Source of the DNA: a virus
Lineage: Duplodnaviria; Caudoviricetes
Virus record (IMG/VR): IMGVR_UViG_3300046522_000316
Coordinates: 1 to 64,000 of that record
DNA: 64,000 nucleotides
Reading direction: 5' to 3' (one strand)
The notes under the pieces were generated by a model that searched no databases, had not been told where the DNA came from, and saw only the letters and a program-made list of their open reading frames with translations. Below, in pieces: positions 20,511-62,576 of this stretch; the stretch's first letter is position 1; each line of letters opens with the position of its first letter. Both the position numbers and the translations under genes were made by a program.

Positions 20511-21620
20511 TTAACGAACCAGACGCTTACCTTTCACGACGGAACGGTTGTTGGCGAGAACGAACGAGAACGCTTCGGACAGCATCCAGCCTTTAGCGGT
20601 AGAACCTTCGTGCGCGTAGTCAACCGGACGGGATTGGATACCGCCGCGAGTCGAGTAGGCAGCGTGGTGTTCAGGGCTGGCAACAACGTAGATTTCGCCA
20701 CGTTCCAGAACCTTTTGGTTCGGTGCGCGGAAACCATCGGTCAGCAGTTGCAGACCAACCAGCGTACCCAGCTGGCCGTTCAGAGCCAAGTCGTACTTGG
20801 TGATCGGATCGAGCATGGTTGCGAAATCGTTCGAACCGATGATATCCGACCAGTAGTCGTTGGAAATGATCGCGGTAGTTGCTGGCAGATTCCAGTCGGT
20901 TACAGCGGTGCGCAGACGACCAAGGTTTTTGGTGGTCAGTTCGCCAGCGATGTATTCGATTGGGTTCATCATGCCAACGGTTGCGTCAGCAGCGATTTTC
21001 CACAGACGGTCTTCCTGAACCATCATGCTTTGCAGCGCGTCGTTGTAAGCGTGTTCCAGCAGATCGCCCGAAACCTGTTCCATGTCCAGCGCGTTTACGC
21101 GAACGTTGGCGATGATTTCGAATTCGGCAGGCAGGAATTGACGAGCGCGAATGTTCTGGTAGCCGACGCCAGCAGGGCCGGTGGCAACAACTGCCATCGA
21201 ATCATGCGGAGGCATTGGAACGCGTTGAACTTCGCCCTGACGCAGAGTGTTACCTTGCGAAAGTTTACGCAGGAAACCATCACGCTCGGATTGCTCGTAA
21301 ACCTGTTGCGCGATGTTCGCGCCCAGTGCTTGCCAGTTTTCGTCGGAAGCCATTGCTTCGCGCATGATTTCGCGACGTTGTTCGCGTTGTTCTTTGCTCG
21401 AAGCGGTGGCGATTTGTTGTTCAGGAACAACGATGCCCTTTTGCACGGCGTCCATCAGACGACCGATTTGTTGGGCGAGGTCTTTGCTGTCGGAGGCGTT
21501 GAATTCGCCAGTGGCGGAACTCAGAGCCAGCGAACCACCTTTCGAATAGCGCAGTTCGTCGAGCGGGGAACCGTCACGCAGAACCATCCGTGCGCCTTGA
21601 ATTTTGTTTGGGGTGAACAT
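20511..21620 (-). CDS. major capsid protein
   Basis: 369 aa; HK97-like organisation inferred from sequence pattern; strong codon bias; follows scaffold and decoration genes. Confidence 0.8.
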   Translation of the reverse strand: MFTPNKIQGARMVLRDGSPLDELRYSKGGSLALSSATGEFNASDSKDLAQQIGRLMDAVQKGIVVPEQQIATASSKEQREQRREIMREAMASDENWQALGANIAQQVYEQSERDGFLRKLSQGNTLRQGEVQRVPMPPHDSMAVVATGPAGVGYQNIRARQFLPAEFEIIANVRVNALDMEQVSGDLLEHAYNDALQSMMVQEDRLWKIAADATVGMMNPIEYIAGELTTKNLGRLRTAVTDWNLPATTAIISNDYWSDIIGSNDFATMLDPITKYDLALNGQLGTLVGLQLLTDGFRAPNQKVLERGEIYVVASPEHHAAYSTRGGIQSRPVDYAHEGSTAKGWMLSEAFSFVLANNRSVVKGKRLVR

Positions 21621-22415: not shown

Positions 22416-24353
22416 TCAGAACAGTTTCAAGCCGGTCAGCTTGGTTTTGAAATCATTTTGCGGTTGCTGTGCCGAAGCGGTTGCGACCACGTTTTCTTGT
22501 TGCACTTGCGCTGGAGTTTGCACCGGACGGCCCACCGAAATCGAAGACGCGGTAGCCACGTTTTTCGGTTCGATTTGAGTCACGGCGGTCGCCATCTGGT
22601 TTTGAACGACTTGATCGAAGTTCATGATTTCGCCAGCCTTCGCCAAAATCGACGCATGGTATTCAGGCGAATGATCAATGAACGCACGTTGCAGAAGTTC
22701 TTCAGCACCGGACAGGCCGATGGATTCCAGACTGGAAGCGAGCGCGGTCACAATCGGGTTGTTCAGGTCACGGAAATAACCGGTGTTAATACCGTGTGCA
22801 GCCGTCGCCAAAGCCGATTCGTAGCGGGTTGCGAGTTCCGATTTATCGCGTGCGGTTGCTTCAGCCAGCACGTTACCCTGTTCGGTAACTTGCGATTTGA
22901 TTTGTTCCGCAACAACCTGTTCGATTTGCAGAACTGGTTTGATTTCTTCGAAACGCAGTTGTTGCAGTGCAGCAGGCACGCCCTGTTCGCTGGCAATTGC
23001 TTTGAAAGCACGGCCAATTGCTGGATCAGCAAAAGTAGCCGGATTTTCCGAAGCAGAAGCGATTGCTTTTGCGAAAGGAATACCGTTATGGAATGCCATC
23101 CACGTAGGTTCGCCTTGGACGTTACCTACATAATTAACATCAACAGTATTTTCCTTCATGTCCGAAGACGCGATGGAAACGAAAGATGCGGTTACTTCAA
23201 CCGGCGCCACAACTTCAGGCGTAGCGGCCACAACAGGTGCGGCGGCAGCGGCTGGTTGTTCAGCGTTGGTTTCTGCGTTGGTTTCAGCATTTGCAACGGC
23301 GGCATTTTGCTCGGCCAATTGCTCAGCTTCGGTTTTCGCGCTTGCGGTAGCCATTTCAGGTTTTACCTTTTTACGAACGCCGCCTTTTTTCTTGCCTTTC
23401 GAAGCAGCGAGGCCCAAAGAAAGATCGTCGTCATCGTCTTCTTCCTCTTCCTCTTCTTCCTCTTCTTCCTCGTCGTCCGTTTCTTCTTCCTCTTCCTCTT
23501 CTTCCTCGAATTCTTCGTCGTCGTCGTCTTCCTCTTCTTCCTCTTCTTCGTCATCCGAAGCTTTGGCAAGGAAATCGGCGCTCGCAGTAGCTTTTTGCTC
23601 TGCGCTCATTTCGTCTTCCGGATCAACCAGACCCATGTTGGTCACGGGGCAGAAAATCGGAGATTGGTTGCTGGCGACAATGTGCATTTCCGGGCCTTCG
23701 TCAGAAGCAGTAACCAGATAATGCACTTTCATTTTGCCGTCTTCGGTGGCAGCGGATGCCACGGCGAGTTGTGGCACATAACCTTCAACTTTTTCAGCTT
23801 CGATATTCTTGTAAATGTCGAAGTTGATTGGTTGGTTGGAAATGACCATAACGTCATCGCATTTCGCGGCAAAAGTTTCGCCTTCGCCGGATGCCAGAGC
23901 GCGGAATGCTTCAACAGCAGAAACGCGGTCGGTTGCTACGGCGAGCAGCAATTCTTTTGGTTGGTTGTTCTTTTTCAAGTCAGCGTCTTCCATTTGGGGG
24001 AGGTCGGAAGCGCAAGCCGGGCATTTATCCAACAGTTCGAGACTGTCGGTGATAACGTGTGCGCCGCAACCGCTGGAGCAGGCTTGATAGAACGCGTCCA
24101 TATCCTCTTCAGCATTCGAGGCTACGGCCACCATTTCATGCTTTTCGTCTTCCGGAACGGCAACCATTTCTTCACCGTTCAACGGGTTCAGAAGTTGCAA
24201 ATCGGATTGGGCGGTAGCAATGGCGAACGCGCCATCTTTACTTTCCAAAACGCGATAAGTACCCGAAGCGACAGCGCTGAAAAGTTCCACTGCTTGCTCT
24301 TGGTTATCAGCCATAACGACGATGCCGCGCAGGCGCGAATTTCGTTTCGACAT
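22416..24353 (-). CDS. putative scaffolding / prohead core protein
   Basis: 645 aa, poly-D/E tract, Ala-rich helical C-terminus, CxxC motifs, many AxAS motifs. Confidence 0.6.
   Translation of the reverse strand: MSKRNSRLRGIVVMADNQEQAVELFSAVASGTYRVLESKDGAFAIATAQSDLQLLNPLNGEEMVAVPEDEKHEMVAVASNAEEDMDAFYQACSSGCGAHVITDSLELLDKCPACASDLPQMEDADLKKNNQPKELLLAVATDRVSAVEAFRALASGEGETFAAKCDDVMVISNQPINFDIYKNIEAEKVEGYVPQLAVASAATEDGKMKVHYLVTASDEGPEMHIVASNQSPIFCPVTNMGLVDPEDEMSAEQKATASADFLAKASDDEEEEEEEDDDDEEFEEEEEEEEETDDEEEEEEEEEEEDDDDDLSLGLAASKGKKKGGVRKKVKPEMATASAKTEAEQLAEQNAAVANAETNAETNAEQPAAAAAPVVAATPEVVAPVEVTASFVSIASSDMKENTVDVNYVGNVQGEPTWMAFHNGIPFAKAIASASENPATFADPAIGRAFKAIASEQGVPAALQQLRFEEIKPVLQIEQVVAEQIKSQVTEQGNVLAEATARDKSELATRYESALATAAHGINTGYFRDLNNPIVTALASSLESIGLSGAEELLQRAFIDHSPEYHASILAKAGEIMNFDQVVQNQMATAVTQIEPKNVATASSISVGRPVQTPAQVQQENVVATASAQQPQNDFKTKLTGLKLF
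23420..23555. repeat. low-complexity GAA/GAG/GAC codon tract (poly-Glu/Asp)
   Basis: Encodes DDEEEEEEEDDDDEEFEEEEEEEEETDDEEEEEEEEEEEDDDDD. Confidence 0.9.
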
Positions 24354-58878: not shown

Positions 58879-59212
58879 CTTTTTTCTTCTTCGCTAGGAT
58901 TAGATGTTTGGAATGTCGGCTACTGTGCTGGGCAGCATGGCAGTCGGCGCAAAGGGTACGCAGGTTGTGCATTACGGTTTGCCCACCGGATGCAACAGGG
59001 CGAATATGATCGACCTGCAAATACGTTGTGTTGGGGCATTTGGTGCATTTGTTCCCGTCGCGTTTAATCACCTTCGCACGGATTGTCATCCACTCACTGC
59101 GGTCGCCGTAAACGGTTGCAGAAGCACGACGAACTTTTGCCACAACTTTTGCTTTCTTCGGCCCGCTTGCAACACTCTTAACCCGCTTGGGGGCGACACG
59201 CGTGGGCCTCAT
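58859..59212 (-). CDS. HNH endonuclease
   Basis: RDGNKCTKC...VDHIRPVASGG...NLRTLCADCHAAQH. Confidence 0.9.
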   Translation of the reverse strand: MRPTRVAPKRVKSVASGPKKAKVVAKVRRASATVYGDRSEWMTIRAKVIKRDGNKCTKCPNTTYLQVDHIRPVASGGQTVMHNLRTLCADCHAAQHSSRHSKHLILAKKKKDAKDAT

Positions 59213-59997
59213 ATCAATACCTTCCGCATCCGATCCAGTGCTTTTGGATATTCTTCGGTGACAGATGCCGCCGCTTCACCCAAAGTATTTTTCAGTTTCT
59301 TTTCCACTTCCGAACGCTGGTCTTCGTTCTTAATGAACTTGGTGATTGCGCCCATCATGTGGAAATAAATATCGGTGAAAGCCTGCGCCACAATCTGCTG
59401 ATACGGGCGCATTACAATCGCTTCCAGTTCGGAAATCTGTGCAGAAATATCGCGAGTGGCACGCAGGTCTGCGATCACTTCACGAATCTGCGAATAGATG
59501 GTGTTCAACGCATAAACGTCTTTGTTGTAAATGCGATCTTCCATCTGTTCTTCGAGACGTTGAGCAGTCTGAATCAGTTGCTCAAAAATACGGCGAGTTT
59601 CCGCATCGTATTCATCGACCGGGGCCGGGAGGTGAACGTATTCTTCCACCGCTGCAAGCGTGGTGGCTTTGCCTTTCGCTTTCTTTTTCAACGCTACAGA
59701 ACCAGCAGGCAGCGCGATTTCTTTACTCAGCGATTTAGGGCCGGGAATCAACTGGCCTTCCAGCGCTTTCTTTTTCTTTTTCTTGATTGGATCTTGGCCG
59801 ACTTTGTAAGTGTTATCTTCGATCACGATTGGTTCGTGTTTTTCGACTTTAACCTTTTTCTTTTTCTTAACGGATGGGCCACGACCTTCGTCAAGGTGTT
59901 TATTGCGAAGCTTACCGCGATCATCAACGCTAATGCCGTCGTCATCGCCGCCACGCACGGTGCGCACTTTCACACCAGAACTTTTTACCTTAGCCAT
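59209..59997 (-). CDS. hypothetical protein with Lys-rich N-terminus and helical C-terminus (terminase small subunit is one possibility)
   Basis: 262 aa; family call is speculative. Confidence 0.6.
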   Translation of the reverse strand: MAKVKSSGVKVRTVRGGDDDGISVDDRGKLRNKHLDEGRGPSVKKKKKVKVEKHEPIVIEDNTYKVGQDPIKKKKKKALEGQLIPGPKSLSKEIALPAGSVALKKKAKGKATTLAAVEEYVHLPAPVDEYDAETRRIFEQLIQTAQRLEEQMEDRIYNKDVYALNTIYSQIREVIADLRATRDISAQISELEAIVMRPYQQIVAQAFTDIYFHMMGAITKFIKNEDQRSEVEKKLKNTLGEAAASVTEEYPKALDRMRKVLI

Positions 59998-60026
59998 GCA
60001 TTCCCCCTAACCGCCGCCAAACCGAC

Positions 60027-60047
60027 AAAAGGGGGCGCATGGCCCCC
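60027..60047 (-). terminator. intrinsic terminator
   Basis: GGGGGC/GCCCCC stem plus U4. Confidence 0.6.
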
Positions 60048-60069
60048 TCTTGAATTTCCCGCTTTTTGT

Positions 60070-60915
60070 TTAGAAGAAAACGTGACCGCGAACGCGAGTC
60101 ATGAACTCTTCGAAGTAGGCCGGGCGGCGTGCGAAAACGCGGCTGTAGAACGAAGAGAAACGATCAACGTCAGCAGCCGATGCAACGGCGATGGAATCTT
60201 GAATTTCTTCTTCTTCCAGTTCGACGGCGCCAGCGGTAACAACGATCATTTCGCGATGCACGGTTTCGGTTTGGCCGTTCGGGCGAACAACGAAAATGTC
60301 CGGGGTTGGCGAACCGTCTTCGTGGTCGATGGAAGCGCAGGCAATACCCATTTGCAGGTCAGCCGATTGCTGCGAAACGTAGGTGATAAGGTCGCCGCCT
60401 TCCACCATTGCGCGATCCTGCGAGGATTGCACGTGCAGGTTTTTGTTGTTGAAATCGTTCACGTCCGATTTGGCAACGGCCAGCAATTGCTGCATTACCA
60501 GAGTGTCGTCAGCGCAAACGGATTTAACCATTACTTCGCCGGTTGCGGTTTTGCGCAGAGTCCACAGATTTTCGTCTGCGTCCATGTACATGTTGGCCGC
60601 AACGGCCTTGTAGTTCGGGCGGTTGCCATCGTTCAGAACAACGCGTTCGGAAACGACGCCGACGATACCTTCGAAGTGATGCAGGGTCGGTTCAGCGGCC
60701 AGCGAAACGAACGAACCGTGAATCGGGGAAACGCCTTTGAATTGCGCTTTGATACCGGCGAAAACTTGTTCAGCAGTTGCGCCAGCAGAAGCAACGGCGA
60801 CAACGCGCATGAAACGGTCGTCGATTGGAAAGGCTTCGCGAATTTCTACTTTGGTTACGGCGGTTTTGCCGGAAGTAACCAGCGCATCGCGGGCTTTGGT
60901 AGCGTTGAAAGTCAT
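60070..60915 (-). CDS. putative head structural/internal protein
   Basis: 281 aa, own GTAATTTAA motif, GGAG SD, three AxAS motifs, strong codon bias. Confidence 0.65.
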   Translation of the reverse strand: MTFNATKARDALVTSGKTAVTKVEIREAFPIDDRFMRVVAVASAGATAEQVFAGIKAQFKGVSPIHGSFVSLAAEPTLHHFEGIVGVVSERVVLNDGNRPNYKAVAANMYMDADENLWTLRKTATGEVMVKSVCADDTLVMQQLLAVAKSDVNDFNNKNLHVQSSQDRAMVEGGDLITYVSQQSADLQMGIACASIDHEDGSPTPDIFVVRPNGQTETVHREMIVVTAGAVELEEEEIQDSIAVASAADVDRFSSFYSRVFARRPAYFEEFMTRVRGHVFF

Positions 60916-60941
60916 GTGGTAAATCTCCAGAGGATGTATTG

Positions 60942-60950
60942 TTAAATTAC
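60942..60950 (-). promoter_or_regulatory. candidate late promoter GTAATTTAA
   Basis: Intergenic, about 27 nt before start 60915. Confidence 0.55.
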
Positions 60951-60952
60951 GT

Positions 60953-61336
60953 TTATTCAGTGTCGCGGGGCACGAAGATTACTTTGCCCATTGTTTCCGG
61001 GCTTTTGTCTTTCAAATGCGGAGCCATGAAACCATCGGTGTAAATGGAACAACCCGCCAATTGGCCGAGGGTGCCGTCCAATACCAAATCGTGTTCCACG
61101 CTTGGATCGAAGTATTCAGCGCATTCATTGGAACCGATAATGTCCGACCACGGTTTAGCGTGCATCAGCACATATTTCGATTTGCGGAGAAGTTTACGCG
61201 CCTCTTCCATATTCTTGAAAATGGTATCGTCCACGATGATCCCTTTTTCGAGAGCTTCTGGAAGACGTTGGAAATACGAGGAATTTTCCAATGCGAGTTT
61301 ATCTTCGAGTTGTGCCTGCGTCATTTGATCGTTCAT
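60953..61336 (-). CDS. truncated paralogue of the major capsid protein
   Basis: 25 of 44 residues identical without gaps to MCP segment WSDIIGSN...TDGFxAP; track start 61396 overlaps upstream gene. Confidence 0.8.
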   Translation of the reverse strand: MNDQMTQAQLEDKLALENSSYFQRLPEALEKGIIVDDTIFKNMEEARKLLRKSKYVLMHAKPWSDIIGSNECAEYFDPSVEHDLVLDGTLGQLAGCSIYTDGFMAPHLKDKSPETMGKVIFVPRDTE

Positions 61337-61358
61337 GCTCTTTATGCCCCTTGTCACA

Positions 61359-62576
61359 TTAAAAGAAATTGCGGAAGAATCCGCCGGTAGATCCACGCCC
61401 CGGATAACCCGGAATGCGAGTCATCGCGGTGTTCGAAATTCCGAGAATACCGAACGCACGACTTGAATCAATGAAACCACCACCCACACTGCCATCGCCG
61501 CCCAAAGCACCAGCACGGCCCAACAGTTTTTTCAGCGGTTTTACTTGGCTTTCGATTTGCGCATCAATGCGGCCCAATGCACTTTCAATTGCCGGTGTGC
61601 GGTCAACGTTCAGGCTGACAGTTTGCCCGCCGAAATCAAACGCTAACGAACCTTCTGCCAAGTTCTGCGAACCTAATGCGTAGATTGCACTACAGGTCAG
61701 CCACGCATCGAGCAAAGGCCCTTGCATGTTGGTGCCGGTAAAGTTCGTGATATTCGGAAGCAATCCGTTGAAGAAACTCAGACCACGCGAGAGATATTCC
61801 ATGATATCGGATTGCGTGTATTCCAGTTCCGGAATAATGTTCGCAACCCGCGCACGGTTAATGTAATCCTCAAGCTGTCGGCTGGCCGTAAGAATCTGCG
61901 GCGTGATTGCCCACACTTTGTAAGTCAGCGTAGTTTTCGCAATCTTCCGGGCCGGGGTATGATCCACCAGCATCGTCAGAGGAAACATTTGCGGACTGCC
62001 AATAATTGCAGGCATGTCGATCACGGTACGCTTATTCATCCGTTCGATTTTAATCGCAGGATCTTCAACGTTCCAATCTGCAAAAACCGTTTTGTTGTTG
62101 TAGTACAGCGAGACAGTCAGCGTATCGCCTTCTTTCTCTTTTCTGGCGGCTGTACCTTTCGCCAAATCGGCTTTCTTCGCAGGCACTGGCGGTTTGTACG
62201 TGACCGGCACCGTTAATTGCATGCGCGTATCACGTCCGCAAATGATAACCACGTCTGCTTCACGACCGAGGGTCGCGGGTTCAACTGTGATTTTCGTTCG
62301 TGCCTGATATTGCCCGGTATCAGATTCAAATGACCAACGGGCGGTTAATTCGACCGCATCGCGCAAATCCATATTCGGGATCGGTAGGTCTGCGATCCAG
62401 TGGCCGGGCATGCTTTGATACGGCTTCGCGTAAACTTCTGCAATTACCGATTTGTCAGTATCGAATAAACGAACGAGCGGTGCCGGTGTGTTTTCCGTTG
62501 GGATTACCGGATCGTCGAAGTCATCGAAAAACTCTTCGGTGATTGAACAGGTTGCGCCTTCGTGAACGGTGGTCAT
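61359..62576 (-). CDS. putative neck / head-tail adaptor protein
   Basis: Beta-rich N-terminus plus helical C-terminus with FDFGGQTVSLN; adaptor-like pattern. Confidence 0.5.
   Translation of the reverse strand: MTTVHEGATCSITEEFFDDFDDPVIPTENTPAPLVRLFDTDKSVIAEVYAKPYQSMPGHWIADLPIPNMDLRDAVELTARWSFESDTGQYQARTKITVEPATLGREADVVIICGRDTRMQLTVPVTYKPPVPAKKADLAKGTAARKEKEGDTLTVSLYYNNKTVFADWNVEDPAIKIERMNKRTVIDMPAIIGSPQMFPLTMLVDHTPARKIAKTTLTYKVWAITPQILTASRQLEDYINRARVANIIPELEYTQSDIMEYLSRGLSFFNGLLPNITNFTGTNMQGPLLDAWLTCSAIYALGSQNLAEGSLAFDFGGQTVSLNVDRTPAIESALGRIDAQIESQVKPLKKLLGRAGALGGDGSVGGGFIDSSRAFGILGISNTAMTRIPGYPGRGSTGGFFRNFF

Follow-up and report, generated by a model that had tools for sequence, protein, structure and literature searches.

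Bacteriophage T4 carries, besides the gene for its major capsid protein (MCP) gp23, a paralogue encoding the vertex protein gp24, a full-length HK97-fold subunit that builds the pentons. On the host side, the bacterial sensors Avs7, Avs8, Avs10 and Dsr1 sense the axial (A) domain of the MCP (10.64898/2026.01.04.697583), in a study that covers host sensors and full MCP triggers and reports no phage-encoded A-domain fragment. Bacterial sensors of conserved phage structural folds have been described only recently, and an essential capsid interface cannot simply change to escape them. Furthermore, the parts of a study of fast-evolving phage accessory genes on which we draw propose that such genes mostly antagonise host defences or other viruses (10.1101/2023.04.06.535777).

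Here we analysed 64,000 nucleotides (the window) of a jumbo phage of ~314 kb, related to the Pseudomonas phages HRDY3 (~80% DNA identity), Lu11 and PaBG. The group to which these relatives belong has been described (PMC7412058); no mention of HRDY3 was found in the literature. Directly after a head-tail connector gene the window encodes a small protein of 127 residues (P0001), hereafter mini:

61359..62576, minus strand: upstream neighbour, head-tail connector protein, 405 aa (phrog_17327)
61337..61358, minus strand: spacer of 22 nt from the connector stop to the mini start, with a conserved, ribosome-site-like GGGG...AAAG
60953..61336, minus strand: free-standing A-domain gene (mini), 127 aa, ATG at 61336 and stop at 60955-60953, coordinates including the stop
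60070..60915, minus strand: downstream neighbour, 281-aa protein (phrog_17573), 37 nt past mini, with two A-V-A-S motifs

The stand-alone, intact frame described in the sequence-only reading is thus borne out, and the orthologues are intact as well. A GTG start at 61396 was rejected, as it overlaps the connector gene and all orthologues start 19-22 nt past the connector stop. No separate promoter for mini was seen in the 22-nt spacer. A terminator-like hairpin at 61384-61371 was likewise dismissed: it is weak, it falls within the coding sequence of the connector, and sites of this kind occur no more often than by chance. In every contig examined the gene order is a 301-aa gene, the connector, mini, the 281-aa gene, a gene of ~260 aa, an HNH endonuclease and later an SNF2 helicase. 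The 262-aa protein two genes downstream of mini (window 59209-59997, minus strand), after which the HNH endonuclease gene comes in the relatives, has two runs of 5 or 6 lysines near its N-terminus. A 528-aa open frame antisense to the 281-aa and 262-aa genes (window 59359-60945, plus strand) is most likely not a gene, because it matches no family and the genes that it overlaps are conserved.

The window MCP was identified by phrog_2522 (3.7e-116), by the NCBIfam family NF042927 'HK97-fold major capsid protein' (286.9 bits) and by its solved relative Gp27 (PDB 6wkk). The regions which it shares with mini are as follows:

20511..21620, minus strand: MCP, 369 aa, HK97 fold (phrog_2522, NF042927, 6wkk)
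20679..20882, minus strand: MCP residues 247-314, A-domain segment homologous to mini (BLASTP, hhalign)
60968..61180, minus strand: mini residues 53-123, core homologous to the MCP A-domain (hhalign, NF042927, AF2 secondary structure)
60956..61021, minus strand: mini residues 106-127, family-specific axial loop and last strand, 80% mean identity among alleles and the most conserved block, unlike the MCP

BLASTP aligned mini 63-109 with MCP 257-303 without gaps (26/47 identities, E 4e-16); this is the alignment that the sequence-only reading had reported as 25/44 identities between 61019-61150 and 20721-20852, and its coordinates are correct. That reading had also taken the flanks to be unrelated. 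Profile-profile comparison (hhalign) extends the homology to mini 53-123 = MCP 247-314 (99.4%, E 3.6e-21), so this holds only in part. Residues invariant in MCPs are kept in mini (W63, D65, D77-P78, G88, G91 and T100-D101). The core runs through a strand, a helix with W-S-D-I-I-G-S-N, a hairpin, a strand, the axial loop and the last strand, a succession that we take, from the motif pattern, to be the A-domain core of the HK97 fold. Of the full fold (N-arm, E-loop, P-domain with spine helix, A-domain), homology in mini is confined to the A-domain core; as had been proposed, a protein of ~127 aa that covers only part of the HK97 fold cannot form a shell. Mini matches NF042927 with 31.4 bits, under the whole-protein cut-off of 80 and only at profile positions 158-219 of 280, and phrog_2522 only at positions 208-256 of 318. 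Pfam matched neither mini nor the MCP, and in Pfam, PHROG and NCBIfam mini matches no family except the MCP, none of these families setting A-domain minis apart from MCPs. A six-frame HMM search of the 64-kb window found no further A-domain copy. Mini is a free-standing copy of the A-domain core of a Lu11/PaBG-type HK97-fold capsid protein, placed after N-terminal helices.

Structure modelling agrees with this assignment at the level of secondary structure. An AF2 model built from 40 sequences (pLDDT 89, pTM 0.81) has the secondary structure of the A-domain core, and gave no Foldseek match at E <= 1e-3. Its best VIA scores included lambda gpE (Z 4.8), 3bqw (Z 4.6) and Pelota C-domains (Z 4.9), the capsid matches being sub-threshold and mixed with Pelota/eRF1 C-domains. 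The first AF2 model (9 sequences, pLDDT 70) had no matches in Foldseek PDB or in VIA wide. Co-folding of MCP 76-369 with mini, both given as alignments, scored 0.00 and carries no weight for or against binding.

Outside the core, a second and weaker resemblance to the MCP was found near the N-terminus, a further qualification of the claim that the flanks are unrelated:

61232..61276, minus strand: mini residues 21-35, conserved helix motif YFQRLPEALEKG..., 75% mean identity among alleles, resembling the MCP propeptide helix
21417..21494, minus strand: MCP residues 43-68, N-terminal (propeptide) helix, which reappears at the N-terminus of longer mini alleles

In mini itself the likeness is slight (residues 24-35 against MCP 54-65, E 0.022) and it becomes clearer in the longer alleles (P0011 residues 2-40 against MCP 43-91, E 3e-5). 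Comparisons with 6wkk and NF042927 place the start of the mature MCP core near residue 77-80, and maturation costs the PaBG MCP ~20% of its mass (PMC7412058); the MCP-like helix therefore belongs to the removed propeptide. Judged from these alignments, the mini family looks like an MCP that kept its propeptide helix and its A-domain and lost everything between and after them. A short motif, A-[TV]-A-[ST], occurs 15 times across the window ORFs of at least 120 aa: eight occurrences lie in a highly acidic protein of 645 aa adjoining the head genes (window 22416-24353, minus strand), two in the 281-aa protein, and one at MCP residues 71-74, just ahead of the mature core. This is probably the prohead-protease cleavage motif of the Lu11-like phage group, and the acidic protein probably serves as a scaffold or core component that is cleaved into fragments.

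Relatives of mini were found at the same place, directly after the connector and before the 281-aa gene, in the contigs L002-L010 and L018. Eight metagenomic orthologues (P0004-P0011) of 126-173 aa are 52-75% identical to mini and all intact, and the window protein has the features that the family shares, namely the A-domain module, the conserved N-terminal helix and the conserved block of axial loop and last strand. Two members are tandem forms. In Pseudomonas phage Lu11, gp106 (YP_006382636.1; L002:3878-4741, NC_017972) has 287 aa in two tandem A-domain modules, 54% and 41% identical to mini over 104-111 residues; the other double stands at the mini locus of contig L018. RefSeq labels gp106 as 'major head protein' and GenBank as 'hypothetical protein'. 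The RefSeq name is misleading, because two tandem A-domains cannot build a shell; the true Lu11 MCP is encoded elsewhere in the record. Among 50,697 phage records, Lu11 alone has a free-standing copy of the A-domain. No description of a free-standing capsid A-domain or of a phage-encoded capsid decoy was found in the literature; the statement that no equivalent is described accordingly stands for publications, while gp106 had been deposited in GenBank, unrecognised. In HRDY3, only 59 nt separate the connector from the 281-aa gene (L001:3905-3963, PQ015379). The frame in this spacer reads ...EFKQFVI-stop, and 19 of 19 nt match the last codons of the C-extended alleles, a remnant from which we conclude that mini was deleted in HRDY3 and thus that it is dispensable.

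The breadth of the family was assessed by searching a profile of nine alleles against 1.84 billion representatives, which gave 99 matches at E <= 0.001. Tandem and single forms came first, followed by ~15 more distant stand-alone proteins of 107-151 aa, and then by true MCPs of 350-390 aa that matched only profile positions 55-112; the WD40 giants P0028 and P0064 were set aside as spurious repeat matches. In all, ~20 further clusters, at the 50% identity level, belong to the free-standing A-domain family. A tree was calculated from the shared core, with an alignment of 77 columns only; in it a branch with support 96/78, present in 98% of bootstrap trees, separates 32 MCPs from all of the minis. 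Mini therefore did not arise by recent copying of the window MCP, and of the earlier description as a mini-paralogue the derivation from an MCP stands while the recent origin from the phage's own MCP does not. The family is old and is found in Lu11-like jumbo phages, and its origin falls, in the tree, outside the sampled MCP radiation.

Several distant members lie outside head gene clusters. P0017 (151 aa) is encoded between thymidylate synthase (thyA) and DHFR, and the next gene (L016:4449-5174) contains two weak A-domain-like stretches (protein E 5.6e-7), which suggests an A-domain array in this thyA-DHFR operon. P0021 stands amid small genes near a Tad2-like gene (anti-Thoeris family), P0018 near a DNA methylase and a ParB-like gene, and P0016 in a run of small genes without known function. 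The distant stand-alone A-domain genes at L012:1-475 and L014:2220-3227 lie within runs of small genes on the same strand, among them a Tad2-like gene, a DNA methylase and a ParB-like gene.

The contigs L008 and L010 derive from nearly the same phage as the window, with dS of 0.06 in the connector, 0.035 in the 281-aa gene and 0.01 in the 301-aa gene and with proteins 99-100% identical. Their minis, in contrast, share only 56% and 64% protein identity with that of the window (dS 1.26 and 1.74). Break points were located by a 60-nt sliding DNA comparison of the window with both contigs: identity falls from 98-100% to ~60-65% at ~61330 and is back at 98-100% at ~60963 in L008 and at 61007 in L010, so that the edges of the cassette coincide with those of the ORF. 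Contigs from two other public samples show the same replacement, with flanks that differ at 8-14 positions; in one of them 61031-61324 is replaced by 418 other letters and in the second the replaced stretches are 61040-61359 and 60951-61008. The allele of the window itself recurs, with 2 differences, in a further sample. Sequencing runs labelled as RNA contain small shares of the window only. The high dS of mini indicates that old alleles are exchanged, rather than that the gene mutates rapidly in place. The nearby HNH endonuclease was ruled out as the cause of the swapping, since it is separated from the cassette by two genes that are 99% conserved. The mini locus is a dispensable, polymorphic cassette at which deeply diverged alleles recombine between near-identical phages and at which tandem doubling or deletion is possible; a variable gene between conserved core genes of close relatives, it has the make-up of a hypervariable accessory cassette.

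Each allele is under purifying selection. Pairwise dN/dS is 0.19-0.33 in mini against ~0.09-0.18 in the neighbours, and mini evolves faster than they do (dN ~0.37 against ~0.12). Mean identity among the alleles is high in four blocks, 21-35 (75%), 53-69 (71%), 84-105 (64%) and 106-127 (80%), and low in the blocks 1-20 (30%), 36-52 (44%) and 70-83 (44%). That mini is a decaying or functionless remnant of a capsid-gene duplication might be argued from its faster evolution and from its deletion in HRDY3, but it is very improbable and largely refuted: none of the nine single-domain alleles and neither tandem form is disrupted, dN/dS remains low, conserved blocks reach 71-80% identity, and the family has ~20 more clusters and an origin, in the tree, outside the sampled MCP radiation. 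Neutral evolution, absence in relatives and annotation as a known family, which the sequence-only reading had named as grounds for giving it up, were not what we found, given dN/dS of ~0.2-0.33, nine alleles and two tandem forms intact, and no separate family annotated.

Mini is dispensable and stands amid conserved genes, its old alleles circulate, it is found duplicated in tandem and it has paralogues in accessory loci; this is the pattern of a gene engaged in conflict. Among the functions that had been listed for mini, a decoy fits the new evidence best in our analysis, and we put the probability that mini serves as a decoy or competitor directed at host sensors of the MCP A-domain (Avs7, Avs8, Avs10, Dsr1) at roughly 35%. 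In such a scheme mini would be made alongside the late head proteins and would do its work in the cytoplasm instead of the shell. Mini would present the conserved penton- and hexon-forming face of unassembled MCP without the P-domain, E-loop and N-arm, and could thereby occupy or titrate A-domain sensors of the Avs7, Avs8, Avs10 or Dsr1 type without offering the full contact needed for their activation, and the pressure from the sensors would keep many mini alleles circulating. The restriction of the homology to the A-domain core, the conservation of a family under selection, the swapping, the change in copy number and the relatives in non-structural loci would all count in favour of a decoy. 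Against it, a free A-domain might set a sensor off instead of blocking it, and the position in a late head/neck operon also fits a role in the virion or in assembly. Moreover, the two most conserved blocks (21-35 and 106-127) are family-specific and not MCP-like, so that mini may have something else than an MCP sensor as its main partner.

The operon position also speaks for an assembly factor with the MCP or the scaffold of the phage itself as its binding partner. As a holdase, timing factor or modulator of size or vertices, such a factor might cover the face with which unassembled MCP forms capsomers, or its propeptide-like helix might compete for the scaffold. The conserved A-domain interface residues and the presence of that helix agree with such a role, and tandem doubles would mimic two adjacent subunits. 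We nonetheless consider it rather unlikely: against a background of highly conserved MCP and flanking head genes, mini differs by ~40% between near-identical phages, which the partner of a constant MCP should not do, HRDY3 manages without mini, and paralogues occur in nucleotide-metabolism and accessory loci.

A minor virion protein, be it a decoration, a capsomer-centre plug or a portal-vertex adaptor on or in the head, seems unlikely to a somewhat greater degree. Its gene would suitably lie between the connector gene and that of a probable protease-processed head protein, and surface-exposed decoration proteins can be variable and dispensable. Mini, however, resembles no decoration family in Pfam, PHROG or NCBIfam and lacks the A[TV]A[ST] motif found in the probable processed head proteins, and its relatives include members of non-structural operons. 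States with one, two or no modules are hard to square with a fixed site in a lattice, and since mini is single, double or absent and differs by ~40% between near-identical phages, a fixed structural role is unlikely; the deletion in HRDY3 and the strong variation between near-identical phages thus speak against the capsomer plug or vertex adaptor proposed earlier.

Conflict might also be waged with other viruses. The Gag-derived restriction factors Fv1 and enJS56A1, which act in retroviruses, provide the model of a dominant-negative capsid fragment, and mini could similarly poison the capsid assembly of co-infecting relatives. The deep allelic diversity within one phage species and the retained capsomer-forming face would suit such a weapon, yet it would have to spare the phage's own, nearly identical MCP and has no known precedent in phages, and we regard it as improbable.

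Returning to the decoy, we advance only tentatively the wider proposal that Lu11-like jumbo phages encode diversifying A-domain decoys which would blunt receptors (Avs7, Avs8, Avs10, Dsr1 or similar) for the capsomer-forming face of the unassembled capsid protein. If this is true, it would be the first example of molecular self-mimicry by which a phage counters the sensing of a structural protein, and mini, dispensable, rapidly exchanged and encoding exactly the sub-domain that the sensors grip, is a concrete candidate answer to how phages could escape them. Even if the decoy reading is wrong, an HK97-fold sub-domain can stand as a protein in its own right and be under selection as such, and the label 'major head protein' on Lu11 gp106 misleads.

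Compared with known systems, mini has the A-domain core in common with the HK97-fold MCPs of the Lu11/PaBG group (phrog_2522, NF042927, 6wkk Gp27), but it is without their N-arm, E-loop and P-domain and their C-terminal part, has a longer axial loop peculiar to the family, and is an accessory, polymorphic gene where the MCP is a core gene. Like T4 gp24, it is a second capsid-derived gene in one genome; unlike gp24, with its full-length, penton-forming fold, it has 127 aa, comprises one sub-domain and is dispensable. Lu11 gp106 shares both the domain and the locus, between the connector gp107 and gp105, and differs in carrying two modules in tandem (287 aa) where the window mini has one (127 aa). 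With the fast-evolving accessory and counter-defence loci, as presented in the parts of 10.1101/2023.04.06.535777 used here, mini shares the setting of a variable gene amid conserved core genes, with presence or absence and turnover of alleles; it differs from them in its derivation from a structural protein, apparently not reported in those parts, and in that its counter-defence role is putative. Finally, the sub-domain gripped by Avs7, Avs8, Avs10 and Dsr1 (10.64898/2026.01.04.697583) is the same sub-domain that mini encodes.
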